Shown here in pieces: positions 2,946 to 55,266 of a DNA stretch of 64,000 bases. Within the stretch, counting starts at the first letter, position 1; each line of letters starts with the position of its first letter. The translations under genes and the position numbers were made by a program. The stretch spans positions 202-64,201 of the IMG/VR virus record IMGVR_UViG_3300044613_001789. One strand, given 5' to 3'. Source of the stretch: a virus (taxonomy: Duplodnaviria > Caudoviricetes). Below the pieces are notes generated by a model that had not been told where the DNA came from, ran no database searches, and saw only the letters and a list, made by a program, of their open reading frames with translations.

Positions 2946-4256
2946 ATGCTGCTGACATCCACCAGCGATAAAATCCGATTGGTCACTTCCGTAGCTGGTG
3001 ATGTTCGCGTGCAAGCTAGCTACGTGGACCTCTCTGGTAGTACGGTTACACCTGGACGGCTTAACAGTTCTATCAGCACAGCTACGACGACCGATATAGT
3101 CGCAAGCCCTGCAAGTAGCACGCAACGAAAAATAAAGTACGTATCCATTTGGAACGACTCTAGCAGTTCAGCCAATTCGGTTACAGTGCAACACACTGAC
3201 GGGACGACAGTCGTCGATATTTACGTCGTCAGTCTGCCAAGCCAATCAGGATTGACCTACGTCGATGGGCAAGGCTGGACTGTAATCGGCAATTCTAGAC
3301 CGACAAACATTCAAACCTTTTCCGCAAGTGGCACATGGAACAAGCCGACCAGCTTCAACCCGGGCGTTGTTATGGTTCGCGTCTGGGGTGCAGGTGGCGG
3401 TGGCGGTGGGGGTTCGTCTCTGGCAACTGCGACCGTTACCAAGGGTGGCGGTGGCGGCGGCGGGGGTTGCTTTGTTGAAAGAATTTTCAGAGCATCTGAC
3501 CTTGGCGACGACGTATCGGTGACCATCGGTGCAGGAGGCTCAGCGGGCACGGGTGCAACGGCAGGCGGCTCCGGCGGCGATGGTGGCGTCGGCGGCAACA
3601 CGACATTTGGCTCACTGCTGACCGGCTACGGTGGCGGCGGCGGAAGAGGCGGGCAAAACTCTGCGCTTGCGACTGGCGGTGGCGGCGGCGGTGGCGGGCA
3701 CTCTGCCGGTCAAACAGCCACCGCAGCGGTGGGCGGCAACGGGGGGCAGCCAATTTCGTCCGGGCCGGGTTTTGACATTCAAGGCATCACGGGGGCGGTT
3801 GGCTCGGGTAATAGTTATTACGGTCACTTCGGCGGGGGCGGCGGTGGCGGCTCGACAAATGCTGCCGCTTCAACCTCTGGCGGCGGGTCGCTTTTTGGCG
3901 GCGGTGGCGGCGGCTCGGGCGGTGGAACAAGCGCAGTTCCTGCGGCAACCAGCCCGACGACCGGCGGCGGTTTTAGCTCGTCTGTTGGCGGCGGGGGAGC
4001 GGCGGGCGTCTCAGCGGGTCCATCAGGCCCGTCACCTCTGCCCGGCGATGCGGGCGGGGCAACCAACGGCACAACGGGTGGCGCGGGTGGCGGCGGTGGC
4101 GGCTCGACTGTGCAGGCTTCCGCCAACGGCGCAGCGGGCGGCGCAGGCGGGCTCGGCGGCGGCGGTGGCGGTGGTGGCGGGCGTGGCAGCAATCCGGGTC
4201 TTGGCGGCGCTGGTGGCATCGGTGGCGCTGGATACTGTGTCGTAATCTCTTGGTAA
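2946..4256 (+). CDS. Glycine-rich fibre/adhesin-like protein, paralog 1
   Basis: ~115-aa N-domain then QTFSASGTWNKP...VWGAGGGGG, many poly-Gly runs, ends GGAGYCVVISW. Confidence 0.8.
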   Translation: MLLTSTSDKIRLVTSVAGDVRVQASYVDLSGSTVTPGRLNSSISTATTTDIVASPASSTQRKIKYVSIWNDSSSSANSVTVQHTDGTTVVDIYVVSLPSQSGLTYVDGQGWTVIGNSRPTNIQTFSASGTWNKPTSFNPGVVMVRVWGAGGGGGGGSSLATATVTKGGGGGGGGCFVERIFRASDLGDDVSVTIGAGGSAGTGATAGGSGGDGGVGGNTTFGSLLTGYGGGGGRGGQNSALATGGGGGGGGHSAGQTATAAVGGNGGQPISSGPGFDIQGITGAVGSGNSYYGHFGGGGGGGSTNAAASTSGGGSLFGGGGGGSGGGTSAVPAATSPTTGGGFSSSVGGGGAAGVSAGPSGPSPLPGDAGGATNGTTGGAGGGGGGSTVQASANGAAGGAGGLGGGGGGGGGRGSNPGLGGAGGIGGAGYCVVISW

Positions 4257-4262
4257 TAAAAA

Positions 4263-5561
4263 ATGTACCTAACGTCAACCAGCGACAAAATCAGAGTCAC
4301 AACAAGTTTATCGAACAGCGTCCTAGTTCACGCTTCCTATGTGGACCTGTCCGGTAGTACAGTCACACCAGGCAGGCTCAACACGAGCATAGCAGCGGCA
4401 ACCACAACTGACGTAGTGGGCAGCCCTAGTGGGAGCGATAGCCGAGTCGTAAAGTTTCTATCGGTATGGAACGACCACAATTCAGCGGCTCAGACAATTA
4501 CAGTGCTGCATACGGATGGAACAACGACGGCGGATTTGTGGAGCGGTAGCATTCCTGCCCAGTCAGGATTGATTTTCGACGAAGCAAGCGGGTGGAAGGT
4601 GTCATCTCCGTTCCCTTCGGCGGACATTAAGACTTTTGATGCCCCGGGTGGAACGTGGACCAAGCCGACCGGTCCTCGCACCGGGCTGACCCTTATCCGG
4701 CTGTGGGGCGGCGGAGGCGGCGGCGGAGGCGGCGCGTCTCTGGCAACTGCAGTTGTCGCTAAAGGTGGATCGGGCGGCGGCGGGGGGCTGTGCGCCAGTC
4801 AGATTTTTCCGACCGATTCTCTGCCCGAAAAATTGACTGTCGTGATCGGATTGGGCGGCGGCGGTGGTGGCGGCGGCACGGCTGGCGCAGCGGGCTTGAG
4901 CCCGCTTTTTGGATCCCCGTCGTATGTTCGGGCAACGACCTACACGCTACTTTTCGCCCATGGCGGGGCTGCGGGGACGGGTGGTGCGATCAGCGCCGCG
5001 ACTTCCAACGGCGGCACCGGGGCGGGCACTCATGGCGCCAACCTAGGAGCCATAAACAGCGCGGGGGCATCGGGACAGCCTATCAACGGCAGCAATTCGA
5101 CTGCGTTTGGCCCTGCTTGGGAAGGCGGCGGTGGCGGTGGCGGGTCCAGCAACAGCGCAACCGTGCCTCTCGTAACTGCGGGTAGCACTGCCCGGTGGGG
5201 TGGCGGCGGTGGCGGCTCTGGCGGGTGTCACAGCAGCACCCCCACCACCATCGATGCATCGGCAGGCGGCGGCACAGGCAACAGCGTTGGCGCTACGGCG
5301 GGCGGGCTTGGCGGTGCAGCGGGCACGAGCGGTGCATCGCCTACGGCAGGCGCAAACGGCATTGACACTACCGGCATCGTAGGCGGCACAGGCGGAGGTG
5401 GTGGCGGAACGACTGTCACGGCATCTACTGCGGGCGCGGCTGGCGGCAACGGGGGCAAAGGTGGCGGCGGTGGTGGTGGTGGCGGTGTCGGCATGAACCC
5501 CGGCGTCGGTGGCCGGGGTGGCAACGGAGGCAACGGCTATGGGATCATAATATCATGGTGA
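4263..5561 (+). CDS. Glycine-rich fibre/adhesin-like protein, paralog 2
   Basis: Shares LTSTSDKIR and ASYVDLSGSTVTPGRLN with paralog 1; poly-Gly runs; ends GGNGYGIIISW. Confidence 0.8.
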   Translation: MYLTSTSDKIRVTTSLSNSVLVHASYVDLSGSTVTPGRLNTSIAAATTTDVVGSPSGSDSRVVKFLSVWNDHNSAAQTITVLHTDGTTTADLWSGSIPAQSGLIFDEASGWKVSSPFPSADIKTFDAPGGTWTKPTGPRTGLTLIRLWGGGGGGGGGASLATAVVAKGGSGGGGGLCASQIFPTDSLPEKLTVVIGLGGGGGGGGTAGAAGLSPLFGSPSYVRATTYTLLFAHGGAAGTGGAISAATSNGGTGAGTHGANLGAINSAGASGQPINGSNSTAFGPAWEGGGGGGGSSNSATVPLVTAGSTARWGGGGGGSGGCHSSTPTTIDASAGGGTGNSVGATAGGLGGAAGTSGASPTAGANGIDTTGIVGGTGGGGGGTTVTASTAGAAGGNGGKGGGGGGGGGVGMNPGVGGRGGNGGNGYGIIISW

Positions 5562-8414: not shown

Positions 8415-9110
8415 ATGTCTAATTACATTCTAATACACGGCATCCGTATTGCCAAGACTTTCGAACCAGAAACCTTCGGTCGTCTCACGACCATCGGTCC
8501 TCGGTTTCTGCTTCCAGTAGGCACAAAATGGGAATATGCGCCTCGCCAAGTCTGTAGGTGTGTCTGCGGCAATATAACCATAGTGCACTCCGCTAGCCTA
8601 ATAACAGGAAACACAGAGAGTTGCGGCTGCAAACACAAAGAAAAAGTATACAGACATGGAGGAGTATCAGGTCGCAACAGGTCTGAGTACGCCAGTTATG
8701 TTAGTATGTTGTCACGATGCACGAACCCAAACACCAAAGATTATCCAAATTACGGAGGACGCGGAATCCGCGTCTGCGACCGATGGCGAGAACCCAACGG
8801 CCAAGGTTTCCTTAATTTCCTTTCAGATATGGGAGCAAAACCATTCAAGAATTTAACTGTAGAACGGAAATTAGTAAACGGTAATTATTGCCCAGAAAAC
8901 TGCTGTTGGGCTACGAATACAGAGCAAGCCAGAAACAGGCGAAGCAACCTGAACTTAACTCACGACGGAAAGACTCAGTGCTTAACTGCCTGGGCTGAAG
9001 AACTAGGCATGACGCGAAGCACACTGAAAAGCCGTCTACAAAGGGGTTGGTCAATCGAAGAAGTATTGACCGCCCCCGTTCGCAAACCTAAACAAAGTCC
9101 GAAACCGTGA
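8415..9110 (+). CDS. Free-standing HNH-type endonuclease, copy 1
   Basis: FGRLT, CxCxCG, SCGC, YGGRGIRVCDRW, NGNYCPENCCWAT, LTAWAEELG. Confidence 0.85.
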   Translation: MSNYILIHGIRIAKTFEPETFGRLTTIGPRFLLPVGTKWEYAPRQVCRCVCGNITIVHSASLITGNTESCGCKHKEKVYRHGGVSGRNRSEYASYVSMLSRCTNPNTKDYPNYGGRGIRVCDRWREPNGQGFLNFLSDMGAKPFKNLTVERKLVNGNYCPENCCWATNTEQARNRRSNLNLTHDGKTQCLTAWAEELGMTRSTLKSRLQRGWSIEEVLTAPVRKPKQSPKP

Positions 9111-9879: not shown

Positions 9880-10578
9880 ATGGCTGATTACATTGTAGTG
9901 CATTCGGTAAAAGTTGCAACGGAATTTGTCCCGCAGACCTTCGGTCGTTTAACGACCATTGGTCCGATATTCTGGTTGCCGGTCGGATCGACAAAAAAGC
10001 ATAGAAAGTACCAAGTGTGTCAGTGTGTTTGTGGGAATATAGTTTCATTAAGCGTGGCTGATTTAGTCACGTCACGAACGCAAAGTTGCGGCTGCCTCCA
10101 TAAAGAGAGACTGCGGCAACGTCTAACAAAACACGGAAGATCGCATACCCGCGAACACGTAGCATGGACATGCCTCATCCAACGATGCTATAACCCAAAT
10201 GACTGCGGATACGCTAACTACGGAGGACGCGGAATCCGCGTCTGCGATAGGTGGCTGGAACCGGACGGACAAGGGTTCATAAATTTCATCCAAGACATGG
10301 GTGAACGCCCATCTAAGGGACATAGCATCGATAGGATCGATGTAAATAGCCATTACTGCCCGGAAAACTGCCGATGGGCAACACGCACAGAACAGAACAG
10401 GAACCAAAGAACTAATCACGTATTGACTTTCAACGGTAAAACCCAATGCCTTGCAGCATGGGCAGAAGAGCTAGGGTACCACAAAGGTTTAATACGAGAC
10501 AGATTATGTTTACTAGGCTGGTCTATAGACAAAGCCCTAAAAACACCACCTCGTTCTCGTAAACAGAAACCACGTTAA
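9880..10578 (+). CDS. Free-standing HNH-type endonuclease, copy 2
   Basis: Same motif set as copy 1, with SIDRIDVNSHYCPENCRWAT. Confidence 0.85.
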   Translation: MADYIVVHSVKVATEFVPQTFGRLTTIGPIFWLPVGSTKKHRKYQVCQCVCGNIVSLSVADLVTSRTQSCGCLHKERLRQRLTKHGRSHTREHVAWTCLIQRCYNPNDCGYANYGGRGIRVCDRWLEPDGQGFINFIQDMGERPSKGHSIDRIDVNSHYCPENCRWATRTEQNRNQRTNHVLTFNGKTQCLAAWAEELGYHKGLIRDRLCLLGWSIDKALKTPPRSRKQKPR

Positions 10579-16226: not shown

Positions 16227-16556
16227 TTAGAGGTATCTTTCGGCAATATCGCCCCACGAACTCACAATAAATCGGCTTTTGTAGTAACAAATTGTGAGAT
16301 CGTAGGTTTCGCCGGTGTGGAGGTATTGGATAGTAAATACATCCTGCCCATAATCGCTAGTAGTGCCCTCAACTCCGAATGTACCCAAATCAGGGTATCG
16401 GGCTTCCGTTAATTGCAGGGCGTGAGCTACGGCATGCGATGGATGCGCATATCTGTATTCAGGGGAGATAATCAGTTTGTCGAATTGTCGCTTGGCATAG
16501 TTGCGGGCTTTCCGCAGATAGTCCAATCGGGATTGTGTGCTTTGTTGCTGGATCAT
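16227..16556 (-). CDS. Hypothetical early protein
   Basis: FGVEG, YL.TGETY..T, SSWGD motifs of a common phage early family. Confidence 0.7.
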   Translation of the reverse strand: MIQQQSTQSRLDYLRKARNYAKRQFDKLIISPEYRYAHPSHAVAHALQLTEARYPDLGTFGVEGTTSDYGQDVFTIQYLHTGETYDLTICYYKSRFIVSSWGDIAERYL

Positions 16557-16569
16557 GGTTTATTCCGTT

Positions 16570-16911
16570 CTAAAGTACGTTAGCTAGTGATTTTCGCAGC
16601 GACCGGAATATAGAAAGATGGAATTTCAAAGCGGATAGCATATCTTGAATTGTGCTGAATTGTTGCTCCAAAATACCGCAATTGTCCGCCATTTCGTTAT
16701 CGGTGGTATATTCCAGCAATACACGGAACCCGCCACCGTCGCGGGTATTTCTTTCCACTACTCCTGATATAGAATAGTTCGTGCGGATATAATACCGGCG
16801 TTCTATCGCCGAACTGTCACATTCGACAATGCATTCAGTATGTAGTCCGGATTCTATTAAGTGCGATTGTAATTTGTCCTGTACAGTATCGATACGGGTT
16901 TTGGTTGCCAT
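16570..16911 (-). CDS. Hypothetical early protein
   Basis: TTGGAG RBS. Confidence 0.65.
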   Translation of the reverse strand: MATKTRIDTVQDKLQSHLIESGLHTECIVECDSSAIERRYYIRTNYSISGVVERNTRDGGGFRVLLEYTTDNEMADNCGILEQQFSTIQDMLSALKFHLSIFRSLRKSLANVL

Positions 16912-16960
16912 GATATCTCCAATCTAAAGGTTAACAACGGTCGTCACATGACGACCCCAG

Positions 16961-17005
16961 AGCATACGGCGGGACTCGAACCCGCCGCTAACCGGCTTGT
17001 ATGCT
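16961..17005 (-). ncRNA. tRNA-like mini-element (acceptor-like stem plus T-arm, no anticodon arm)
   Basis: Minus strand AGCATAC-AAGCCGGTTAGC-GGCGGG-TTCGAGT-CCCGCC-GTATGCT. Confidence 0.55.
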
Positions 17006-17273
17006 ATACAATCCAATCGGCATAAGCGCCGACGCATCCATCCCGCCAACAATAATCGGAGCCCGCCCAGCTATCAACGGGCATTCCTTGGATTCCAAGA
17101 GCTTTCTTGATTCGTCGGCTTACGGTTCTATCGCTTGCGGTTGTAGGCACTACAACCGTGCGACGGCGCACCCAACAGTAGTTGCCACTCCAAGAGCCCC
17201 CTTCGTTCCAAAGGTCAGTACATTCGGCACGAATGAAGGCAATTGGGGTACTTTGTTCGCAGATCATTATCAT
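17004..17273 (-). CDS. Hypothetical early protein
   Basis: E.TD...G...NYCWVRR motif. Confidence 0.7.
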   Translation of the reverse strand: MIMICEQSTPIAFIRAECTDLWNEGGSWSGNYCWVRRRTVVVPTTASDRTVSRRIKKALGIQGMPVDSWAGSDYCWRDGCVGAYADWIV

Positions 17274-17518
17274 TTTCGGTTACTTTCTTGGAGTTCAGCC
17301 ATTATGTCGGCCAATTGGTTATCTAGTTCCGGATAGCTATTCCCATACAATTGCACAAATAAGCTGGGGTACAATTCAAAAACCGCAATCGCTTTGGTAT
17401 CGGCCAACAATCGATTCAGGCCAAATCTATTCCGTAGGTCACATACGTCAAGACGTAGGATAGGCATTCCGCCTATGCCTATATCTTCATTCGTGGCATA
17501 CCATATTTCTCCGTTCAT
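17270..17518 (-). CDS. Hypothetical early protein, first gene of the leftward cluster
   Basis: GGAG RBS; ATGA overlap with next gene. Confidence 0.6.
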   Translation of the reverse strand: MNGEIWYATNEDIGIGGMPILRLDVCDLRNRFGLNRLLADTKAIAVFELYPSLFVQLYGNSYPELDNQLADIMAELQESNRK

Positions 17519-17547
17519 TATTTACAATTCTCCAGTTGGAGTAAACG

Positions 17548-17577
17548 AAAAAAGGGAGCCAACAATTGGCTCCCTTG
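17548..17577 (-). terminator. Intrinsic terminator
   Basis: Minus strand AAGGGAGCCAA-TTG-TTGGCTCCCTT followed by a T run. Confidence 0.75.
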
Positions 17578-18074
17578 AAACCGACAATCTAGCATTGCAC
17601 TAGAAAGGAGCGGTCTAAACTGAATCGGATTAACTAATTCCTATCGTCTAGATTCTCATATCGGTGGGTTGTTTTGTATTTCGTAGTCTCTATTCCTATC
17701 GCCCATTCTGGGTTAGCAAACTGCTAACAATTCCTAGTTGCTAGCCATTACTTTGTTTGCTGTCATTTCCTTAATTCGATAGTTGGAGTCATTTTCGCGG
17801 ACTCCACAATACTTTCCCTATAGCTCTATTGTGGTGACATTGCCATATCGTAAGGTAGTCCCCTAAGAAAGGTTTGCTACGATATCGCCCACAATCGCTA
17901 ACTAGGTTATCCGTTCCCAAAATACGGCAGAACGAACAACCGAGAAACTATTGTTTCGCGACTAACGGGAGTGGACTACTTTTGAAGGTAATCCTATCGA
18001 CCCTCCCGATAGATTAGACGATATTGCTATTCGTCATTCCCCAACCAGTATATGGGGATTAGTGGCTATCCAAA

Positions 18075-18086
18075 TTGTCAAAGATC
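18075..18086 (-). promoter_or_regulatory. boxA-like antitermination site
   Basis: GATCTTTGACAA on the minus strand; the embedded TTGACA has no -10 at 17 bp. Confidence 0.55.
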
Positions 18087-18545
18087 GGACGGTTTACCAA
18101 TACAGCCAACTATTCGGTTGGGTAATACGGTGGGGTTGTTTCCCATGCGTAGGGTATCGGTAAACCAGGAATGGCGGACTAGGCCGGATGCGTAAGCAGT
18201 CGAAAGCGACTCCTATAACGAGTAATCGGTATATCGGAGATACTGGAAACCGCTTCCCGTATCCTAGGGCCTTTAGGCCCTTCGTCGCCTAAAGGCGACC
18301 CGGTTTCCATCAGCTTCTCAGCCGGTTTCCACCGCGTCACCGTTTCCCGGCGACGTATGCATGATATCGGCAGCCACTAGCCAAAGCAATAGCCAATATC
18401 CTAGAATTCTGCCAAGAATTACCAAAATAAGGCTCTGGACCAACAAAAACACTAGGAAACAATCTTCCCAGTGTTTTCTAAGATTCCCAGTACCATTCCT
18501 CACTAGACACTTAGTATTTGCGAAAGGGCTTAGAGGCCAAAAACC

Positions 18546-18570
18546 TAAGTCTTTACTACATAAAGACTTA
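18546..18570. repeat. Perfect 10-bp inverted repeat with 5-nt spacer
   Basis: TAAGTCTTTA-CTACA-TAAAGACTTA. Confidence 0.85.
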
Positions 18571-18611
18571 CGAAAAACGAGAAATAAAAATACCGGTCAA
18601 GGGGTAGCCTA

Positions 18612-18755
18612 GGCCTGCATAGCAGGCCTAGGCATAGAGGGCCTGCATAGCAGGCCTAGGCATAGAGGGCCTGCATAGCAGGCCTAGGCATAGAGGGCCT
18701 GCATAGCAGGCCTAGGCATAGAGGGCCTGCATAGCAGGCCTAGGCATAGCAGGCC
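18612..18755. repeat. 28-bp tandem repeat, about 5 copies, palindromic units
   Basis: GGCCTGCATAGCAGGCCTAGGCATAGAG starting at 18612, 18640, 18668, 18696, 18724. Confidence 0.97.
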
Positions 18756-19196
18756 ACATGGTAACCGAACTTAAGGTGCAAGGGAGTTAGGCAGATGCTG
18801 CATTCGTAGGCAAGGGGGGTCATATTAGCCGGGCTTATATCCGGCTTGCCGGATGGGCGGATGGTTCAGACCCCCTAATATTTTTATCAAAATATTAGAA
18901 ACACCGGCTCCTTGGACGGCTCCGCCGTCCTGGATACCGGCTTTCGGGACCGCTTCGCGGTCAGGTGATACCGACTCGTCTACCATCCACAAACCTATTA
19001 CCGTCTCGTTTGAAGCCGAATACGAGCCACAAATGTCCAGTTTTAGGCTTTACGGTGTAGAATCTTCCATTATTTTTTTATATTTAGAAAAATGAAAAGT
19101 GCCGAAATTGCAGGGATTATCACTCCCCACTCCTATGTCCGGTAGCCCTAGAACGCATTCTGCGTTAAGGCGAAAAGTACGCCGTAATTAGAATAC

Positions 19197-19225
19197 TTGC
19201 ATCAGTCGCCGGTAGTAGTTATCAT
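19197..19225 (+). promoter_or_regulatory. Sigma70-type promoter, probably leaderless transcript
   Basis: TTGCAT-N17-TATCAT with ATG 6 nt downstream and no RBS. Confidence 0.55.
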
Positions 19226-19231
19226 AATGCT

Positions 19232-19969
19232 ATGAGCACTTCAATCAGCGACTATACGGCTTTCAAGCAGGCGTGCTTGACTGCGGACCTGAACACCTTC
19301 AAGCAGCACCCGGATATCGTTCCGATATTCGAGCATACGTCTGCCGAGCAAGGAGAAGCGTATCTCCAGGTAATCAGGGAGCGGTATCCGCTCCTGCTGG
19401 CCGCCCTACCTAGACTGGTAGTCAATGATGAGATTGGCGGAGCCAATCGCTGTATCACCCTCAAGGATGGCCCTAGCGTGAGCCCTAGCACGCTCCGGTA
19501 CGTCAAGGTACTAGGAGACTTGATCTACGCTGGGCTAGCGTCAGGAGACGCTATAGTGGAGATTGGAGGGGGTTACGGTGGCCAAGCATTGGTCATCCGA
19601 AATAAGATACTCTGGCAGAGTTATACCATTTTTGATTTACCGGAAGCCGGATCGCTCCAGGAGCGATACTTAGCCGAGCACGACTTGACGGTAGAACATG
19701 GAGAATTGTTCGTCGGCAGCCGGGTTACTGATTGGGACTTCTGCATTAGCAACTATGCATTCTCCGAATGCAATAAGCAGATGCAGGATTGGTACTTGGA
19801 GCACGTAATCCTGAAGTCGAAGAAGGGTTATATGACCTGTAACTTCATCAGCAGCCAGTTTGGGGTCGATAGCTATTCGCAGGAGCAGCTACTTTCCCTT
19901 ATCCCGAATTCCTGGCTAGAAGCGGAGAATCCGCTAACGAGCCCCGCTAACGTCGTCATCCGTTGGTAG
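19232..19969 (+). CDS. Putative sugar O-methyltransferase (TIGR04371-like)
   Basis: SPSTLRYVKV, IVEIGGGYGGQ, YTIFDLPE, DFCISNYAFSEC. Confidence 0.85.
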   Translation: MSTSISDYTAFKQACLTADLNTFKQHPDIVPIFEHTSAEQGEAYLQVIRERYPLLLAALPRLVVNDEIGGANRCITLKDGPSVSPSTLRYVKVLGDLIYAGLASGDAIVEIGGGYGGQALVIRNKILWQSYTIFDLPEAGSLQERYLAEHDLTVEHGELFVGSRVTDWDFCISNYAFSECNKQMQDWYLEHVILKSKKGYMTCNFISSQFGVDSYSQEQLLSLIPNSWLEAENPLTSPANVVIRW

Positions 19970-20356
19970 AACAACCGGTTTGATGGTGTTTCGGTTGATT
20001 ACCGGCCACTTGAGTTGATCCCTACGTTCGGGATCAACTTGTGTCCAGGATTCCTTCAGCATAGGACTGGTTACCACCAGTAGCTTACCGTTGATATGCC
20101 ATATGACCTCGTAGACGCCCGGTGTACGGGTTCTTGGGCGTCGGTTGAAGTAGTCTTGATCGTCAACCAATACCCAGTCCTGTACCCGATACTTGCCGTT
20201 ACCCGGTATCTTCTCCCAGAAAATCACCTGGTCGTAGACGTGGACGCCCTTGGCGTCATAGTAGTGATTCAGTTCCAGCAAATCGACATTCCGTTGTTCT
20301 ACGCCTGGGCGTAGACCGGGAACGGAGCAGAATAGGCATAGGAACAGGATTTTCAC
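19934..20356 (-). CDS. Putative secreted hypothetical protein
   Basis: Signal-like N-terminus; VDLLELNHYYD..G..VYDQVIFWE motif. Confidence 0.65.
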   Translation of the reverse strand: MKILFLCLFCSVPGLRPGVEQRNVDLLELNHYYDAKGVHVYDQVIFWEKIPGNGKYRVQDWVLVDDQDYFNRRPRTRTPGVYEVIWHINGKLLVVTSPMLKESWTQVDPERRDQLKWPVINRNTIKPVVLPTDDDVSGAR

Positions 20357-21762: not shown

Positions 21763-23187
21763 ATGCAAATTGACTACTACAAAGAAAAGGCGGACTTGTG
21801 CCGCCAAAGCTACTTTCACTTCGTGAAAGCATTTTGGCCTTATGTCTCCACCGAGAAGCTACAAGTCAACTGGCATATTCCCTACCTTTGCGACGAAATC
21901 CAGCGAAATACCGAGCGAATCTTCGAAGGAAAGCCGAAAGAAGCGGATTTAATCTGCAATATCAGCCCCGGAACCTCAAAATCCTCGATTTTTACGGTCC
22001 TCTATGTCCCTTGGGTATGGACCCGGATGCCGGGATTTCGGTACATCGGAACCAGCTTTGCTGAAGATTTAGCCTTCGAATTGACGGTAAAAAGCCGCCG
22101 AATCATCCAATGCCCCCTATATCAGAAGCTATTTCCGGAAATAGTCCTCAGAGAAGACCTAAATAACAAGTCCATTTGGTCAAATACCCTCGGCGGCGAC
22201 AGATACGCCGCCGGTACGGGCGGTAATATCACAGGTCGCCACGCTCACTGTATCGGCATCGATGATCCTATCGATCCAAAAGGCGGGTGGTCGAAAGCAA
22301 AGCTGCTGGAAGCAGCCAAATACGTCTCAGAAACGCTTCCTAGCCGTAAGGTAGACAAAGCCGTCTCTTGGACGTACCTAGTGATGCAGCGTATCTCGAT
22401 CATGGACCCGACCGAGGTGATGCTAACCAAGTTCCCGAACATCAAGATTATCTGCCTCCCAGGCGAAAAGACCAGTGCTATCCATCCGCCGGAGCTAGCT
22501 GCTTACTATAAGGATGACTTATTTGATCCAGTCAGGTTAAGTAGAAGTGTTCTCAACAGTATCAGGCAGGAATTAGGGGAATATGGCTACGCCGGTCAGA
22601 TCTTACAGCAACCGATACCGCCCGGAGGCGGTGCCATTAAGGTAGATAGGATCATCACCGACCATATCGCGGCACCGGCAGACCGGGATTTCAAGAAAAT
22701 CGTCCGAGCATGGGATAGGGCATACCTCACCGAAGGTGGGGATTACACGGTAGGAGTAAAGCTAGGCATCCTAGAAAACGGCCAAGTATGGATTTTAGAT
22801 ATCAAACGGGGCCAATGGAGCACGGATGAACGAGAAAAGATCATCCTGCTGACGGCACATACGGACGGTAAATCCTGTAGAGTAGGCATGGAGCAAGAGC
22901 CCGGCTCCGCCGGGCAAGAAGCCGTAATCCACGCTAGCCGCCGGCTAATGGGCTTCATTGTCAACGTCGAGCGGTCATCCGCTCGCAAGGACATTCGGGC
23001 CGATTTATTTGCCACGCAAATAAATCTAGGCAATGTGCATACGGCGATACGCGGGAAGGTATGGGAAGAGTACGTCGAGGAGCTAAAACACTTCCCAGAC
23101 GGTATCCACGACGACCAAGTCGATGCCAGCTCGCTGGCTTTCCAGATCTTGACCAAGCCTACTGTACGCCTGGGCGTACTTAGATAG
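21763..23187 (+). CDS. terL: Terminase large subunit
   Basis: NISPGTSKS (Walker A), ITGRHA..IGIDDP (Walker B), MQR, WD.A...GDYTVG, HDDQVDA. Confidence 0.97.
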   Translation: MQIDYYKEKADLCRQSYFHFVKAFWPYVSTEKLQVNWHIPYLCDEIQRNTERIFEGKPKEADLICNISPGTSKSSIFTVLYVPWVWTRMPGFRYIGTSFAEDLAFELTVKSRRIIQCPLYQKLFPEIVLREDLNNKSIWSNTLGGDRYAAGTGGNITGRHAHCIGIDDPIDPKGGWSKAKLLEAAKYVSETLPSRKVDKAVSWTYLVMQRISIMDPTEVMLTKFPNIKIICLPGEKTSAIHPPELAAYYKDDLFDPVRLSRSVLNSIRQELGEYGYAGQILQQPIPPGGGAIKVDRIITDHIAAPADRDFKKIVRAWDRAYLTEGGDYTVGVKLGILENGQVWILDIKRGQWSTDEREKIILLTAHTDGKSCRVGMEQEPGSAGQEAVIHASRRLMGFIVNVERSSARKDIRADLFATQINLGNVHTAIRGKVWEEYVEELKHFPDGIHDDQVDASSLAFQILTKPTVRLGVLR

Positions 23188-23516: not shown

Positions 23517-25010
23517 ATGACACCGACTTTCCAATTCTTAACGAATCTATACGACCGTGCATTGGCAGGCATTCCCGTCATGGACGGGATTGACGGCACT
23601 CGGGATCTAGATAAAGAGTGTGGCTACCAGAACTTCATCAATGACAACGATTACGTGCGTATGTTTCGGAGAGGCGATGTCGCCTCCCGTGTTGTGACGC
23701 TAGAACCAGACGAATGCTGGCAACAATACCCCAAGATATACGAGACGGAAGAGGAACGAGATACCGAGTTCGAAAAGGCGGTAGACCGCCTAGAAGCCAA
23801 AACCCGGTTTTTCTCCTATCTTCACCGTTTAGACCGCATTAGCGGCATTCTCCGCTACGGCGTGATGCTCATCGGCATGGACGATGGAGCATCTCTGGAA
23901 ATACCGGCACCCGGCTACGACGAGCATAAAATGCTCGACGGTCCTGGCACCGACACAAATATTATCTACTACCGAGTCTTCACAGAGGCTTCCGTCAGCG
24001 TATTGGAGTGGGAGACAGATCCTACCAATCCACGGTTCAATCATCCTCTGTATTACAACCTGAACTTCAACGAAGTTACCAATTCTAGCAACACGTCGTA
24101 CACGACGGAGAGAGTCCACTGGTCCCGTATCCTCCATGCCGCAGACAATTTAATTGAGTCTGAAATCCTCGGCCAGCCGAGAATGGAGAATGTCTGGAAC
24201 CGGTTGATGGACTTACGCAAAGTCGTCGGAGGTTCCGGCGAGATGTTCTGGAAGGGCGGGTTCCCTGGACTATCCTTCGAAGTCGATCCAAAGCACGGTG
24301 AATTCTCCACCGAAGAGCGAGACGCTCTACGCGAAGACGTGAAGATGTATGCAGAGGGACTCCAGCGATACATCACTATGGTCGGAGTATCGGTCAAGTC
24401 AATTGCTCCGCAAATTGCGGACCCTACGAGCCACACTGACAATCTTCTAAAACTGATCGCCATGACTAAGGCGATCCCTATGCAGACTTTCATGGGCTCC
24501 CAGCAAGGGCAGCTAGATAGTCCGCAAGATACGATTACATGGCGTGAGCGGATCATGCTCCGAAAGGAGCGATACGTCACACCATCTTTGATCCGGCCAT
24601 TCATCGACCGGCTAATCCAGATCGGTGCTTTACCTACTCCAGTACCCCAAGAAGATCAACCGTTGCCTTACATGGTCAAGTGGGAGCCGATGGCTCCTCT
24701 TAACATCATGGAACAGGCCAAGGTCGCTAAGGACTTCTCCGAAGCCTTAGCCCGGTACGCTACTGCCGGTGCCGAAGCTATTATCCCTCGCCCTGAGTTC
24801 TTAGGCAAGGTGATGGGATACTCCGGCCAACAGGTACAGGCAATAGAGTCGGCTCCGCCGACTGAGCATTCGTTGGTATTCAAGCAACTTGAGGGCATGA
24901 CCGGCTCCGCCGGTGGAAATGCCCCTAGTTCTATACCAAAGGTGCCGAAACCAGGAAATAAACGCGACCCGTCCAAAACCCCAACCAACGCCGTCCAACG
25001 GTCGAGCTAA
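23517..25010 (+). CDS. Portal protein (DUF1073-like)
   Basis: Position after terL; DPTNPRF..P..Y, VHWSRILH, GGSGEMFW. Confidence 0.9.
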   Translation: MTPTFQFLTNLYDRALAGIPVMDGIDGTRDLDKECGYQNFINDNDYVRMFRRGDVASRVVTLEPDECWQQYPKIYETEEERDTEFEKAVDRLEAKTRFFSYLHRLDRISGILRYGVMLIGMDDGASLEIPAPGYDEHKMLDGPGTDTNIIYYRVFTEASVSVLEWETDPTNPRFNHPLYYNLNFNEVTNSSNTSYTTERVHWSRILHAADNLIESEILGQPRMENVWNRLMDLRKVVGGSGEMFWKGGFPGLSFEVDPKHGEFSTEERDALREDVKMYAEGLQRYITMVGVSVKSIAPQIADPTSHTDNLLKLIAMTKAIPMQTFMGSQQGQLDSPQDTITWRERIMLRKERYVTPSLIRPFIDRLIQIGALPTPVPQEDQPLPYMVKWEPMAPLNIMEQAKVAKDFSEALARYATAGAEAIIPRPEFLGKVMGYSGQQVQAIESAPPTEHSLVFKQLEGMTGSAGGNAPSSIPKVPKPGNKRDPSKTPTNAVQRSS

Positions 25011-27058: not shown

Positions 27059-28180
27059 ATGGAAACACAAGTTCAAGTTGATAGCGGATTCTCGGCAACG
27101 GACAACGGCTTGATTGCCAACGGTTCCGTCGCCCAGAGACTCCTTTCCACTGGCGGTAACTACGACTCCCTTCGACCATACGTTGGCGAAGACGGAAAGT
27201 CGTATATTTCCGTGCATAACGGAAAATACGACAGCAACGGCAAGCCGTTGTACGAAGCAAAGTTCATCGGTAATGCCGGTGCGGTTCTTTCGAAGAACGA
27301 ATGGCAATACCTAGATGCCGCCGTTGTTCGCGTAGCGAAGCCTCGGTTGCAGTTGGTAAACTCTATGCGTGCCGCTGGGATGACTGAATCTTTCGCGAAC
27401 GCATACAACTTCGGCGTATATCAATACGAACGAGTTAGCGATATCGACGATGCGTCGGTTTCGATGAGTCCGAAGAGTCGTTCGACGATTGATCGTCCTA
27501 CGACCGACATCGTCAACTTGCCTTTGCCGATTGTTCACAAGGAATTGTCCTTTGAAGCTCGCGAATTGGCTATCAGCCGAAATCGCGGTCAAGCGATCAG
27601 CACAACCACTTTGGAAATGGCTTCCGAGCGAGTTGCTGAAACCATCGAGAAGATGGCTTTAGGAACTTGGGGCACATACGCATACGGTGGCGGAACTCTC
27701 TACGGTTTGACGAACTTCCCAGGTCGTCAAACAGGAGCGTTCTTGAACCCAACAGTTGGTGGATGGACTCCTCAGATGTTGTACAACAGCGTCATCGAGA
27801 TGGTTAAGAAGCAACAGGATCAAAACCAGTTCGGTACATACGATTTGTACTTCAGCACCGGTTTGATGCAGTACATGCTTCGCGATTACTCTGCCAACTA
27901 CTCCGGAAGCAACTTGCAGAACAAGATCGCCGAACTTTCGGTTATCAACAGTGTTCAACAACTTGACTACCTTACCGGAAACCAGTTGGTTTTGGTTCGC
28001 CGAAGCCCACAAACTGCTTCGATCCTCGTCGGAATGGACATGCGATTGGTTCAGTGGAACACCGATGGCGGCGAGACACTCAACATGCGGTTGATGGCTT
28101 TGATGGTTCCTTTGATTCGTCAAGACAAGAATTCGCAATCAGGTATCGTTCACTACACCGGCAACGCAACTACTGCCTAA
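27059..28180 (+). CDS. Major capsid protein (HK97 fold, linocin/encapsulin-like)
   Basis: EWQYLDAAV, LPIVHKE..F.AREL..SR, YGLTNFP; followed by a terminator. Confidence 0.92.
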   Translation: METQVQVDSGFSATDNGLIANGSVAQRLLSTGGNYDSLRPYVGEDGKSYISVHNGKYDSNGKPLYEAKFIGNAGAVLSKNEWQYLDAAVVRVAKPRLQLVNSMRAAGMTESFANAYNFGVYQYERVSDIDDASVSMSPKSRSTIDRPTTDIVNLPLPIVHKELSFEARELAISRNRGQAISTTTLEMASERVAETIEKMALGTWGTYAYGGGTLYGLTNFPGRQTGAFLNPTVGGWTPQMLYNSVIEMVKKQQDQNQFGTYDLYFSTGLMQYMLRDYSANYSGSNLQNKIAELSVINSVQQLDYLTGNQLVLVRRSPQTASILVGMDMRLVQWNTDGGETLNMRLMALMVPLIRQDKNSQSGIVHYTGNATTA

Positions 28181-28276: not shown

Positions 28277-29641
28277 ATGGCCGATACAATTCGAACCAAA
28301 CGGGGCACCACAAGTGCCTGGAATGCTGCTAATCCAGTGCTCGCCTTGGGCGAGCAGGGGTATGATACGACTACCAAGCAAATGAAAATTGGGGATGGGG
28401 TGACGGCTTGGAATTCGTTGGCGTACTTGGACATATCGGCAACGAATCTAACGACTGGTACGCTACCTGATGCTAGGTTGTCGGCAAAGGTTAAATCCCT
28501 GGCTGACCTAGCAACACCAGCATCGACTAGCCTGCTTGCGATGAATGCGAGTGGGGCTTTGGTTGCTGGTGAGAGTGTCGGCATGAACACCGAAGCTGCT
28601 GGCGTAACCGTTTTAGATATTGGCCTTGCTACTTCAGGATGGCCATCTTTTAAACACATTTTGCAATCGATTGCAAATGATGGTGCACCGGGAACATTTA
28701 ATCACATCTACGCTATCGGACTCAATACGAGCGTTGAATCCTTTCACGGCAACACAATACCGGGAAAACCGACGGCTATACTTGCTTTCGAAAGCAACTA
28801 CCCCGATGTTGACGGGCTTGGCCCTGAAATGTATATGGAGTTTGCAAACCTCCAACGACCGTTTTACGCTCGCTCAATCTTCGATCCTGCAACCACAACT
28901 ATCGCGGCAGGAAGCAACGGAGCATCGCTCCCTCAATCAACAATCAATGTTGCTTCGACAACGAAGTTTCCGCAGTACGGATGGATAAAGATCGGTTCAA
29001 ACACGATTGAGTACACAGGAAAGACATCGACTAGTTTTACGGGTTGCACTGGAGGTACTGGATCGCTTGCAACTGGAAACGCTGTCGAGAGTTTGTTTCG
29101 CGATAACTCAACAGTGCACATTGATATTGGCACTGACGGCCAGGGTTCGTTTTCTCTTTTTGCAGGAAAGCTAAATCCTTCGAAACTAGCATACGCTCCT
29201 CAGTCTGGAGGCTTTTTCTTTCGCGATAACGTATCGCTCCAAAGTGGTGGCGTTTTGGTGCTTTCGGCTGCTTCGATTCCTGTACTGAACGCTAATGGTT
29301 CAAGCTATTCTCCTGCTCGTCGGTACTACTCTGAAGACTTTGCCGGCGACTCGACAATCACAATCACTGCTGATTTCGTTGACGTATTTCGTGCTCGGAT
29401 CACAACTTCTGGTACACCGATCTTCGCTGCACCAACCAATCCAACAACCGGCCAAGAACTTACGATCATACTGTCGAATCGATTCGGTGGCACGACGATC
29501 AGTGGGCCAACTTGGGATGCAGTTTTTAAGATGGCTGCGTGGGGGACTAATCCAAGCCCTGGTGCGAATCGGAAGATAACGTTTGTTTATGACGGAACGA
29601 ATTGGACTGAGATATCGAGATCGGAGTTGATTGCAAACTAA
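28277..29641 (+). CDS. Fibre protein with Mtd/hyaluronidase-type N-terminal attachment domain
   Basis: KRGT...W...NPVLALGEQGYDT...KIGDG.TAWNSL.Y; TINVASTT.FP..G.IKIG; C-terminal FVYDGTNWTE. Confidence 0.85.
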   Translation: MADTIRTKRGTTSAWNAANPVLALGEQGYDTTTKQMKIGDGVTAWNSLAYLDISATNLTTGTLPDARLSAKVKSLADLATPASTSLLAMNASGALVAGESVGMNTEAAGVTVLDIGLATSGWPSFKHILQSIANDGAPGTFNHIYAIGLNTSVESFHGNTIPGKPTAILAFESNYPDVDGLGPEMYMEFANLQRPFYARSIFDPATTTIAAGSNGASLPQSTINVASTTKFPQYGWIKIGSNTIEYTGKTSTSFTGCTGGTGSLATGNAVESLFRDNSTVHIDIGTDGQGSFSLFAGKLNPSKLAYAPQSGGFFFRDNVSLQSGGVLVLSAASIPVLNANGSSYSPARRYYSEDFAGDSTITITADFVDVFRARITTSGTPIFAAPTNPTTGQELTIILSNRFGGTTISGPTWDAVFKMAAWGTNPSPGANRKITFVYDGTNWTEISRSELIAN

Positions 29642-35712: not shown

Positions 35713-36020
35713 GTGACTCAGAGTACCTTTGGTACTACGTGGCACACGAAACAGGCTGTCCAAGTGTCCAAATCCTCAAGGAGTATCTTACTTACGAGGA
35801 TCTGGAAAAATGGATGGCCTATTTTTATAGACGGAAGCAGGAACGCGAAAAGCAGGACTGGTACTTAGCGTCTATTGCTCACATAGTAGCATGTACGATG
35901 GGTCAGAGTAAAACGAAGATCGAAGACCACTTACTGAAATTCAGCAATGAAACTCCAGCCCCTAACCCCGACGCCTCTAAGGCGATGTGGTTGAAGGCTC
36001 TAGGGATTAAAGAAATATGA
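35706..36020 (+). CDS. Tail assembly chaperone frameshift extension (T)
   Basis: -1 frame reads VLSDSEYLWYYVAHETG...WMAYF...DWYLASIA. Confidence 0.8.
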   Translation, partial: VLSDSEYLWYYVAHETGCPSVQILKEYLTYEDLEKWMAYFYRRKQEREKQDWYLASIAHIVACTMGQSKTKIEDHLLKFSNETPAPNPDASKAMWLKALGIKEI

Positions 36021-38332
36021 GCGGCCCATCTCGCGAACTACCTCCATTAGTCGTAAAGATTACGGCGGATCCGTCTGTATATCTCAAGGCGTTAGATAAA
36101 ATGGTCCGGGCTACGCAGAAAGCAGCGGCCCAGATAGAGAAGAGTTTGGGCAAGGCGGCTAAAGGCGGAGGTCCGGGCGGCCCTCCGCGAGGTCCAGGAG
36201 GCGGAGGTAAGTTAGGTTGGCGAACAGAGGTTAAATGGCTCGGCAAGCACTTAGACGGCAGACGTAAGTTCGGTCAAGATTTATCTAAGATGATCGACAA
36301 ACAGACCAGAGAGCAAGCCCAACAGCACTCCAAGAACCTCGGAGACGAGATATCCCGCGAACTCAAAGCTCAGCGCAGTCGCAAACAGATATCCGATCAG
36401 CGTGCCGCTGAAGAACACCGGCAGCTCCGTCGCCAACGGATGCGACAAGTAAGCCGTCTGAAGGAAAAGGGAGTTACCGGACGCAAGGCCCGCATGGCGG
36501 GCGGCGGGCGTATGGGTGCCATGATGCAGGGTCTAGACGGCGGTAGTATGATGGGTGCCCGTGCTGATATGTACATGCATAAGCAGTCATTAGGCGGCCT
36601 TTTAGGCGGTGTGGCTAGCTTCCTGAAACCAGCAGCGGAGATGGAAACCTACGCCATAACAATCGGTCAATTTTCTAAGAGTGCCGAAGAAGCTAAAGCC
36701 ACCTTAGCTGAGATGCAGGAATTTGCATTGATATCTCCATACTCTATGGAATCCGTAGTCCAAGGCACATCTCTGATGATGCGATACGGCATGGCTGCTG
36801 GTGATGCTGTCAAGATGACTAAGATGCTGGGTGAGGTAGCCGGAGGCAATAGTGCCAAGATGGAACTGTTGGCTCTCGCAGTCGGCCAGACGACTTCTAT
36901 GGGTAAGCTAATGGGGCAAGAACTCCGTCAGATGACGGAGCACGGCTTCAATCCATTACAGATAGCAGCGGAGCAAATGCTAGGACCGCTCGCCGATCCT
37001 AAGGCCGTCAAGGAGAAGGTGCTAGAACTCAGCAAGTTGATGCGAGCAGGTAAGATCGACGCCGGATTGGTCACTGCCGCATTGGAGATATCTACATCCA
37101 AGGGAGGTAAATACGCCGGGCAAATGGAGAAGCAGGCTAATAGCGTATCCGGCCTAACTTCACAGATCGTAGAGTCGCTCAAGATAGCAGCAGCAGTGAT
37201 AGGTCAAATATTCGAGGATGATACTAAAAAAGCATTAAAGTCCGTGCTTAAGTATGTTACTGATATCATTAAATACTTACGTGACCCCAAGAATAGGGAA
37301 TTTATTAAGGCATGGGGATACTTCGTCATTAAAGTAATTGCTGCTATAGCTGCGTTTCACGCACTAGGATATGTTATAGCTAAGGTCAAATGGCTTTTCG
37401 GGTCATTGGTAATGGTGTTGCAACTGTTGCTTCCGTTGTTTAATTTACTTAAATGGGCAGTGATGGGAATAGCTAGAGCTGCTATCGGCCCTGTAGTAGC
37501 CTCATTCTTTACTATGTACGGGGCTATTATTGCAACAACTGTCGTTGCATTAGCATTAGGGGCGGCTCTCGCCTATGTAATGTATCATGCAAACGCAGAC
37601 ATCCAGAAATACAATGAAGAGCTAAAGAAATCCAATGAACTAACAGATAAGTTATCCAAGCATCATGCATCAAAACACGTACAAACGATGCTTGAGATCC
37701 GCACCGAAAAAGATCCTGCCAAACGCAAGGAGCTAGCAGAGAATGCCTTGAAATCGGCCAAAATAGAACTACAAGGCAAGGAGAGCCAGATATCGCAACA
37801 AGAGCAGCTAGTAGCCAGCTTAGAGCCTACGATAGCGTCAGCATATCAAGGTGGACGTAAAGTATGGGAAGGAGAATCCGCTACTTTAGAGCAACTGAAA
37901 CAACAGAGAGAAGCCCAGGCTAAACGAGTCGCAGAACTACAAGGCATTGTATCACCAGCCGCCCCCGGTGCCGGAGGATTGGTGACCCCGGATGCCCCAG
38001 ACTGGGCTAAAGACCCAGCTAGTGCCGCAGCACACTTCAAGTCGTTCCTTGGAGGAGGGGATGCCGAAGACGGCGACAACATGCCCAGTACACAATCTGC
38101 TTACCGTAGAGGATCAAGCGAGCACGCTCTAGCCCTATACAACCACGATGCGATGAGTATAGGTGAATCTGCTGCTGCTCGCGAAGAAGCAGAGAAGAAG
38201 CAGAAGGAAAAAGAAAAGATCGATTTACTACAGCAAATCGCAACTAACACTAAAATACAGGCTGGATTAAATTCAGTAGGTACGGTAGCCGGTGACATGG
38301 TCGCTGGTTTCCTGTCCGGAGGTAGAAAATGA
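36017..38332 (+). CDS. Tape measure protein
   Basis: A.GQ....GKLMGQELRQM...GFNPL domain, hydrophobic segment, coiled coils. Confidence 0.93.
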   Translation: MSGPSRELPPLVVKITADPSVYLKALDKMVRATQKAAAQIEKSLGKAAKGGGPGGPPRGPGGGGKLGWRTEVKWLGKHLDGRRKFGQDLSKMIDKQTREQAQQHSKNLGDEISRELKAQRSRKQISDQRAAEEHRQLRRQRMRQVSRLKEKGVTGRKARMAGGGRMGAMMQGLDGGSMMGARADMYMHKQSLGGLLGGVASFLKPAAEMETYAITIGQFSKSAEEAKATLAEMQEFALISPYSMESVVQGTSLMMRYGMAAGDAVKMTKMLGEVAGGNSAKMELLALAVGQTTSMGKLMGQELRQMTEHGFNPLQIAAEQMLGPLADPKAVKEKVLELSKLMRAGKIDAGLVTAALEISTSKGGKYAGQMEKQANSVSGLTSQIVESLKIAAAVIGQIFEDDTKKALKSVLKYVTDIIKYLRDPKNREFIKAWGYFVIKVIAAIAAFHALGYVIAKVKWLFGSLVMVLQLLLPLFNLLKWAVMGIARAAIGPVVASFFTMYGAIIATTVVALALGAALAYVMYHANADIQKYNEELKKSNELTDKLSKHHASKHVQTMLEIRTEKDPAKRKELAENALKSAKIELQGKESQISQQEQLVASLEPTIASAYQGGRKVWEGESATLEQLKQQREAQAKRVAELQGIVSPAAPGAGGLVTPDAPDWAKDPASAAAHFKSFLGGGDAEDGDNMPSTQSAYRRGSSEHALALYNHDAMSIGESAAAREEAEKKQKEKEKIDLLQQIATNTKIQAGLNSVGTVAGDMVAGFLSGGRK

Positions 38333-54582: not shown

Positions 54583-55266
54583 CTATTTTTTCCTGAACGC
54601 TGTGTTCGCTGGTGTATTCAAAGCTCTTTCCACCGACCATCCTCTTCGTAGTCTTTCCTCTAAGGTTCCTTTATTGATGCCTTTTTCCGCAGCCCAGTCC
54701 GCTTTGCATTGCGTCCTGCCGTCAATTGTCCAATTGCGGTTACGTCTTGTGTTGCGGCTTTGCTCCCAGTCAGTAGCCCACCTACAGTTACCCGGCTCAT
54801 AGTTGCCATTCACGTCTATTCTATCTATCGAATGCTTATCGGTAGGTCTTAATCCAATGTCCTCTAGGAAATTCAGGAAACCTTTTTCCTGGTCTAGCCA
54901 TCGGTCACAGACGCGGATTCCGCGTCCTCCGTAGTCTGCATATCCGTTTCTGTTCGGGTTCGTGCATCTTTGTAGCATATTTTGCCATATAGAATATTCT
55001 GGTAGATGCCTTTTTCTGTGTTTGGTCGTCCTTGCTATTGTTACATCCCTTTTGAGGCAGCCGCAGCTTTTAGTGTTCCGCGAGACAAGCGAACTAGTCT
55101 CCACTACTAGGATGTTCCCGCATTCGCATTGGCATACTTGGAAAGATCTGTCTTGTCCACGTCTGGGTAAAATGAATTTAGGACCGATAGTTGTCAAACG
55201 GTGTGTAGTCGCAGGAACAAATTCCGTTGCAACGCGAACGGAATGGATTACAATGTATGTAGCCAT
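54583..55266 (-). CDS. Free-standing HNH-type endonuclease, copy 3
   Basis: Same motif set as copies 1 and 2. Confidence 0.85.
   Translation of the reverse strand: MATYIVIHSVRVATEFVPATTHRLTTIGPKFILPRRGQDRSFQVCQCECGNILVVETSSLVSRNTKSCGCLKRDVTIARTTKHRKRHLPEYSIWQNMLQRCTNPNRNGYADYGGRGIRVCDRWLDQEKGFLNFLEDIGLRPTDKHSIDRIDVNGNYEPGNCRWATDWEQSRNTRRNRNWTIDGRTQCKADWAAEKGINKGTLEERLRRGWSVERALNTPANTAFRKK

Follow-up and report, generated by a model that had tools for sequence, protein, structure and literature searches.

Noncoding unit on the minus strand

The window analyzed here is a 64,000-nucleotide (nt) stretch of the IMG/VR virus record IMGVR_UViG_3300044613_001789 (Caudoviricetes). A 1.7-kb gap at 17520-19230 separates a leftward run of small genes of unknown function from a rightward putative sugar O-methyltransferase (TIGR04371). 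The minus strand of this gap contains a unit of about 540 nt (18091-17548) that begins at a boxA element and ends in the T run of an intrinsic terminator. On balance, we lean toward reading it as one untranslated, multi-domain RNA that represents a new family of large phage RNAs, an explanation that works best jointly with protection of transcription by boxA, release of the RNA at the terminator, and a role as a leader when polymerase reads through.

The initial annotation had described this minus-strand stretch as free of open reading frames (ORFs), and in the whole gap the largest ORF has at most 61 amino acids (aa) under translation table 11, with no long frame opening in the stretch if TAG, TGA, or TAA is read as a sense codon. 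No transfer RNAs (tRNAs) were found in the region. That the unit encodes one or more small proteins is hardly credible. A 43-aa sense ORF is open in the window but is lost in L002, the IMG/VR record that is its sole full-length relative, while a 47-aa antisense ORF (17874-18017, plus strand), open in both phages and the only one conserved between them, lies mostly in an identical block and yet takes six amino acid changes from few substitutions.

The boxA element

The unit is headed by GATCTTTGACAATTTGGA at 18086-18069 (minus strand), the only such site in the window. What had been annotated as a boxA-like site matches 17 of the 18 bases of GCTCTTTGACAATTTGGA, an 18-mer found in 16S ribosomal RNA (rRNA) leaders that has C at position 2. 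This widespread 18-mer has at least 120 exact matches across bacterial genomes of many phyla, against about 17 expected by chance (arithmetic estimate), and the flanks of 80 of its loci were mutually unrelated among the matches listed. Of four loci scanned with Rfam, three have a 16S gene on the same strand, 112, 187, or 220 nt downstream of the 18-mer, and the other, from Bacillus, has no rRNA nearby. The window element also fits the gammaproteobacterial boxA consensus GYTCTTTAANA, given in PMC5725501, at 9 of 11 positions. A 19-mer of the window boxA was recovered in three unrelated phage records. In two of them (L020 and L021), the element reads GCTC at its start and lies downstream of a TTGACA-N17-TATAGT promoter, 16 nt ahead of the first tRNA of a tRNA array. 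By its sequence, the head of the unit is a genuine rrn-type boxA.

Sections of PMC7862264 describe boxA as bound by the Nus complex and as preceding long noncoding RNAs such as 16S, and they cite Stringer et al. 2020 for its presence ahead of CRISPR (clustered regularly interspaced short palindromic repeat) arrays. Here, boxA and the terminator share a strand, and the 510 nt that separate them are free of ORFs. Comparison of the module with 120 rrn-leader loci revealed no likeness beyond the 20 to 24 nt at boxA. The hexamer TTGACA at 18081-18076 is more plausibly a piece of boxA than a −35 box; no −10 box lies at a suitable distance from it.

Conservation and relatives

The L002 record was reached through its methyltransferase gene. 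The 539-nt core of the unit (18086-17548) aligns with it without gaps at 91.3% identity (47 substitutions) and is the best-conserved segment of the region in this comparison; the flanking genes are 89 to 90.5% identical and the 400 nt upstream of the core only about 65 to 70% (estimated by eye). The 82-aa ORF directly after the unit in the window is absent from L002, where an 89-aa ORF comes next. Divergent lake contigs from four runs (at least 80% likeness) showed 25 and 50 differences over about 340 to 360 nt, with the match ending at 18091, and other lake contigs ceased to match at 17548, 17536, or 17520. Since the divergent contigs lose similarity at its two ends, the unit appears to be a block with changing surroundings. 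The contigs from these four DNA runs are partial variant lists and provide no further full sequences for covariation.

Searches for more homologues in viral contigs, with exact 19- to 23-mers and with a gapped pattern joining boxA to the closing strand, recovered the element itself from the L002 record only. A 22-mer retrieved a single metagenome contig, identical to the window, and a 21-mer had no match in genome contigs; blastn against 50,697 phage records gave no match either. With a two-sequence profile, nhmmer found no match in six distant loci related by their terminase and nothing beyond boxA in 54 boxA loci (see below). A search with the 113-aa neighboring protein revealed no related locus.

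Predicted structure and compensatory changes

Over the originally annotated span (17548-18086), the minimum free energy (MFE) z-score was −5.8, and it was −5.0 without the terminator. A second control gave −4.6 for the module, and eight coding windows taken from this phage scored between 0.0 and −4.64. When the L002 sequence was threaded through the fold predicted from the window alone, 8 pairs were compensatory, 6 were kept by wobble, and 6 were broken. The null expectation from 10,000 random placements of the substitutions was 0.53 compensatory pairs (maximum of 4) and 23.4 broken pairs (minimum of 12). The same picture emerged when the fold was predicted from L002 in place of the window. 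Two 539-nt pieces of a neighboring 245-aa gene, used as a coding control, were null-like, with 29 and 18 broken pairs (30.4 and 19.6 expected) and 3 and 1 compensatory pairs (1.6 and 0.5 expected). The substitution pattern of the unit is far from chance.

The RNAalifold consensus of the two sequences has approximately 24 helices with 165 pairs, none of them broken. In nine pairs both bases changed, compared with zero to two when the partners were slid by one to three columns. These double changes are found in four helices, namely, hairpin H2 (18017-18035, where an A-U pair becomes G-C in L002), helix 14 (a hairpin at 17842-17888, with five changes and the pairing kept), helix 23 (17627-17641, the inner helix of the 3′ domain, with two), and the terminator. 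They support the structured noncoding RNA of about 540 nt that had been proposed from the window alone.

In the predicted fold, the molecule is closed. The segment UUGACAAUUUGG (18081-18070), which overlaps boxA, would pair with CUAGAUUGUCGG (17592-17581), located 4 nt ahead of the terminator, to form the closing helix P1 (12 invariant pairs, alignment columns 29-40 with 518-529), followed by the 5-bp helix P2 between CACUA (18060-18064) and UAGUG (17598-17602), also invariant. The end-to-end duplex in this region has an energy of −18.1 kcal/mol, compared with −9.8 for shuffled 3′ partners, and shuffles as good were 1 in 300 for the window and 0 in 300 for L002. Within this closure, the first element after boxA is hairpin H1 (18038-18058, 6-bp stem and 9-nt loop), invariant in L002, and then comes H2 with its GCAA tetraloop. 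Helix 11 (17905-17941), a 15-bp long hairpin, is invariant and lies within an 84-nt block identical in L002. All the helices named are on the minus strand. Some segments could pair in more than one way: CCACAAU has potential partners on both its upstream and its downstream side, and there are five occurrences of CUAUCG/CGAUAG motifs. Because of such competition, parts of the model possibly depict one of two states.

The 10 pairings listed in the initial annotation are all present, letter for letter, at their plus-strand positions. They include TCCCCA/TGGGGA (18038-43 and 18053-58, the stem of H1), GACGA...TCGTC (18017-35, with the GCAA loop on the RNA strand), the hairpin at 17989-18016, ATATCGTA/TACGATAT (17845-52 and 17878-85, included in helix 14), CCACAATA/TATTGTGG (17804-34), TGGAGTC/GACTCCA (17784-806), CTAG-TTG-CTAG (17734-44), and TCTAG...CTAGA (17588-604). 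Two of the pairings fared less well in the relative. The local hairpin GTTAGCA/TGCTAAC (17712-28) loses a pair in L002, and an alternative pairing in the consensus goes from G-U to G-C through the same change. As for the suggested pseudoknot, GTAGTCC (17855-61) is indeed complementary to GGACTAC (17973-79), but one of its seven pairs is lost without compensation in L002 and in the X19 contigs (G to A at 17860), leaving the pseudoknot unsupported.

A short motif recurs inside the module, with two copies of CGAUAGGAAU and one of CGAUAGGAUU (17637-17646, 17692-17701, and 17990-17999, minus strand) that make up three of the five exact matches in the 64 kb. One copy is altered in L002. The motif may be a repeated site for protein binding or pairing. 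As a possible antisense target elsewhere in the window, the best match was a 15-mer at 1304-1318 (E of 0.027), which we take as chance.

The minus strand appears to be the RNA strand, because the plus-strand fold keeps its pairs worse (10 broken versus 6), the consensus contains many G-U pairs, and boxA and the terminator point in the same direction. These features also bear on the idea that the hairpins form in DNA, as part of a replication origin or a packaging site, with transcription being incidental. Such an element would suit a 1.7-kb noncoding region that has a 28-bp array of 4.9 copies and a 10-bp palindrome, about 3.7 kb from the terminase gene; moreover, both strands fold better than shuffles, and Watson-Crick compensatory changes are strand symmetric. 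However, the opposite strand would have A-C in place of the many G-U pairs of the consensus, a distance of about 520 nt separates the repeats from the unit, and an RNA-level boxA and a one-directional terminator bracket the unit exactly. We consider a DNA-level element very unlikely.

Terminator, transcription start, and downstream operon

The intrinsic terminator (17546-17576, minus strand), already recognized in the initial annotation, has an 11-bp stem (17576-17552) with six G-C pairs and a 3-nt UUG loop, followed by the T run TTTTTTCGTTT. Its stem is kept in L002 by a compensatory change from A-U to U-A, also present in the X19, X21, and X23 contigs. Downstream, a CUCC-AACU-GGAG mini-hairpin (17530-17541, minus strand) contains the putative ribosome-binding site (RBS) of the first gene (ATG at 17518-17516); it is conserved in L002 except for a change in the loop. 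A consensus scan found no promoter beside boxA, the nearest minus-strand candidate being at 19098-19069. The fast-evolving stretch upstream of the unit (18092-18370, minus strand) possibly belongs to the same transcript. There, the window-only fold is kept in L002 beyond chance, with 23 broken pairs versus 33.9 expected (P of 0.0016) and 8 compensatory pairs versus 3.85 expected (P of 0.027), a weak signal.

Several observations weigh against the reading proposed here. The window boxA departs from the consensus at position 2, with A instead of C or T (L002 has T, which is permitted). No RNA run is among the 24 runs listed for the region (16500-20000). The stretch folds better than shuffled controls, but one of the eight coding windows equals the module in MFE z-score, and folding stability alone is not decisive. 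Most helices of the consensus (20 of 24, including the closing helix) have no two-sided change, 14 being invariant and 6 changed on one side only; five of the nine double changes are in one hairpin and possibly reflect a single event; and the full-length sequences are only two, too few for covariation statistics of the R-scape type. Because there is no promoter just upstream of boxA and there are weak signs of structure in the 280 nt before it, the RNA may be part of a longer transcript beginning further upstream. Finally, the downstream RBS lies about 10 nt past the T run with no promoter between, an arrangement no less suited to a leader than to a gene standing by itself.

The unit could instead act only in cis, as a leader of the nut or attenuator type that sets how much polymerase passes the terminator (17576-17552) and enters the leftward operon of early genes, the RNA having no role of its own. 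Phage nut sites have a boxA followed by hairpins, and the same layout is found here. The RBS is at the same distance from the T run in L002, and the first gene has no promoter-like site of its own. In addition, several segments have mutually exclusive partners (the CCACAAU and CUAUCG/CGAUAG sequences mentioned above), and by eye the 5′ arm of the terminator could find a partner in GCUCCUUU, which lies about 30 nt upstream. Yet this proposed anti-terminator has no covariation support, 0.5 kb with about 165 conserved pairs exceeds the needs of known antitermination and attenuator leaders, and Rfam has no matching leader. Conservation is also higher in the unit (91%) than in the genes under its supposed control (89% and 90.5%), the two phages do not have the same gene directly behind it (L002 lacks the 82-aa ORF), and no arginine-rich N-like protein was recognized. 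We regard a leader with no further function as possible but rather doubtful. The layout fits a free-standing RNA and a leader alike; the RBS so close to the T run without a promoter favors keeping the leader in view, and the leftward genes would most simply be supplied by read-through.

The small number of sequences also invites the view that the unit is functionless, its conservation and apparent compensation having arisen by recombination between close phages. A single patch exchange could account for the block of five pair changes in one hairpin, and the z-score is not unique in the genome. Against this, compensation is found in four separate helices, broken pairs are four-fold below expectation with no such effect in the adjacent gene, and identity drops from 91% in the unit to about 65 to 70% (by eye) in the flanks. 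We consider this view very unlikely.

Genomic setting and sampling

The source record is a 64.2-kb IMG/VR virus with an estimated completeness of 92%, and the window covers almost all of it. From its gene content, the phage looks like a siphovirus, with a large terminase (21763-23187), a portal (23517-25010), a capsid protein (27059-28180), and a tape measure (36017-38332), all on the plus strand, and, starting at about 46 kb on the minus strand, a replication block that includes a family A polymerase, a RecA-like protein, exonucleases, and a clamp-loader-like protein. All 24 runs in which the region is present are DNA runs from lakes or freshwater. No host could be named, since the boxA 18-mer is common to Planctomycetota, Acidobacteriota, Alphaproteobacteria, Desulfobacterota, and others among the matches listed; GCGATCGC, looked for in connection with the host, was not present.

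In the same 1.7-kb gap, the tandem array mentioned above (18612-18749) is a perfect 28-bp repeat of 4.9 copies with a GGCCTGC...GCAGGCC palindrome within every unit. The array of L002 is a mixture of two unit types, and in four lake runs the summed contig depth over the array is about 5 to 10 times that of the neighborhood. It could correspond to iterons, operators, or a repeat RNA. The perfect 10-bp palindrome, CTAATATTTT-GATA-AAAATATTAG (18860-18900), is within a block of about 150 nt that is near-identical in L002 and may be an operator or part of an origin.

Some other features of the genome deserve mention. Two ORFs 8 kb apart (51822-53042 and 61391-62788, minus strand) match positions 552-820 and 836-1239 of phrog_17, a DNA polymerase profile, which suggests a split family A polymerase. 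Three ORFs of about 230 aa with unknown function and no Pfam match share DNA stretches that are 72 to 82% identical; two are in tandem (8415-9110 and 9880-10578, plus strand), and the third is inverted 45 kb away (54583-55266, minus strand). The protein encoded at 28277-29641 (plus strand) has an Mtd_N domain (major tropism determinant N terminus, E of 8.6e-13), and neither a reverse transcriptase nor a template repeat to accompany it was seen within the window. Two adjoining ORFs of about 435 aa (2946-5561, plus strand) have a G+C content of 61 to 63%, compared with about 50% elsewhere, are rich in GGC/GGT repeats, and match glycine-rich families resembling tail fiber assembly proteins.

Other boxA-headed loci in phages

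The 18-mer with C or T at position 2 was found in 54 IMG/VR stretches, where arithmetic predicts only a handful by chance. No rRNA-like sequence was detected within 2.5 kb downstream in any of them, several of these loci being short. The stretches sorted into a family of 24 loci (family A), a family of 14 (family B), two pairs, and 12 singletons. In family A (L150, L174, L168, and 21 more), boxA is in the 5′ untranslated region of an ORF of about 80 to 100 aa, with GGAG and ATG no more than about 10 nt away and a terminator afterward. This would be boxA on a protein-coding gene, as described for suhB in PMC5725501.

Where boxA heads ORF-poor sequence, the latter contains tRNA arrays, a twister ribozyme, or the RNA of family B. 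This family (14 loci, including L147, L153, L163, L181, L182, and L187; for example, L153:3500-4130, minus strand) has about 430 to 435 ORF-free nt from boxA to a terminator of its own and sits upstream of gp32-like genes in AT-rich phages. Of 136 predicted pairs, 39 have double changes (12 rows, 5 haplotypes), and there was no match to Rfam. Like the window RNA, it has the same 18-mer boxA and an ORF-free, covarying structure that extends to the terminator; unlike it, family B has an AT-rich spacer between its terminator and the following gene, and the two RNAs have no sequence similarity beyond boxA. A pairing of the ends of family B looked real by eye but did not exceed shuffled controls (0.047 to 0.183 across the five haplotypes). 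By itself, family B appears to be another large phage RNA that has not been described.

Among the remaining loci, a 125-kb phage record (L190:1034-2084, minus strand) has boxA before about 1 kb of ORF-poor sequence, with a match to the twister-P5 ribozyme (48.6 bits, threshold of 37.6) on the same strand about 950 nt downstream of boxA. In a 226-kb phage record (L151:1433-4744), a tRNA and a permuted transfer-messenger RNA (102.8 bits) precede boxA (2547-2564), beyond which an ORF-poor, G+C-rich stretch of about 1.8 kb leads to further tRNAs. Two singletons, L161 and L171, also have ORF-poor stretches.

Proposed mechanism and implications

The analysis shows a conserved, untranslated unit under structural constraint, set between an rrn-type boxA and an intrinsic terminator and matching no known family. 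From what is established for boxA, we propose that the nascent boxA would load host NusB-S10, NusA, and NusG onto RNA polymerase, as in rRNA operons, and that the polymerase so equipped would be spared abortion by Rho across a transcript free of ribosomes. The RNA is predicted to fold into about 24 helices, with bases on the boxA side pairing with those just before the terminator to join the ends. Going by the layout, the strong intrinsic terminator would then halt transcription and release a discrete, stable RNA, while polymerases that read through would enter the tightly abutting leftward operon of small genes, for which the same RNA would serve as leader.

The rrn-type boxA at its head is a mechanistic handle that other large RNAs do not have, and it predicts that the RNA would depend on Nus factors and be sensitive to Rho. 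A screen of phage genomes for boxA is possibly a cheap route to their noncoding RNA genes. Even if the unit is only a leader, it would be an unusually large and ornate one. To our knowledge, few large structured RNAs without an assigned function have been found, and new RNA biology has come from every new class. In a broader and much more speculative scenario, to which we would give only a small chance, phages have repeatedly evolved “pseudo-rRNA operons,” large folded RNAs that borrow the host boxA for high-level production of untranslated transcripts, the window RNA and family B being two cases. Such RNAs may titrate NusB-S10 or other factors of rRNA transcription or assembly, diverting host ribosome making, or they may form an RNA-only particle as GOLLD and ROOL do. 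No description of boxA-headed large phage RNAs was found in the open-access literature searched. The catalogue of viral structured RNAs in PMC10690425 contains, in its consulted part, motifs of 29 to 151 nt, each present in at least three IMG/VR regions, and its supplementary tables might include pieces of this element or of family B.

Comparison with known systems

The initial annotation mentioned GOLLD and ROOL as precedents and assigned no family, and the covariance models of Rfam 15 led to the same outcome. There were no matches at the gathering score over the whole window, and the nine matches over 17000-19500 (E of 0.2 to 7) were at chance level, none of them to GOLLD, ROOL, HEARO, OLE, or raiA. 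Like these large ornate RNAs, as they appear in the portion of 10.1101/2024.12.08.627333 consulted, the window RNA is several hundred nucleotides long, multi-domain, phage borne, and present in lake water. It differs in having no covariance-model match to GOLLD or ROOL at E up to 10, no adjacent tRNA, and a very narrow distribution (two IMG/VR records). Among 63 different ORFs, there was no reverse transcriptase, IscB/TnpB, or recombinase domain (Pfam, E up to 0.001) to indicate a partner of a retron, omega RNA, or bridge RNA.

With lambdoid nut sites, the unit shares its position in a phage early region, the boxA, the hairpins, and a terminator ahead of early genes. It differs in that boxA and the terminator enclose approximately 500 nt of conserved structure and in that the genome has no second site. 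Hairpins H1 (9-nt loop) and H2 (GCAA loop) start 15 and 38 nt after boxA, and nothing marks either as a protein-binding boxB. The neighboring small proteins matched no family in Pfam, PHROGs, or NCBIfam, and none was recognized as an N-type antiterminator, although a divergent N could escape such searches. The CRISPR arrays of Stringer et al. 2020, as cited in the part of PMC7862264 consulted, also have a boxA heading an untranslated transcript, presumably against termination by Rho, but here it heads one folded RNA and not an array of repeats and spacers.

A further close parallel is the leader of rRNA operons. The phage unit is 0.5 kb long, compared with 5 kb, and has no similarity to rRNA, and the binding of Nus factors would be by analogy. 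Nevertheless, the 18-nt element is the same except for one base, is on the transcribed strand, and precedes a long, structured, untranslated RNA; the sequence on the boxA side is predicted to pair with the far end, in the manner of the leader-trailer helix, and the unit closes at an intrinsic terminator.

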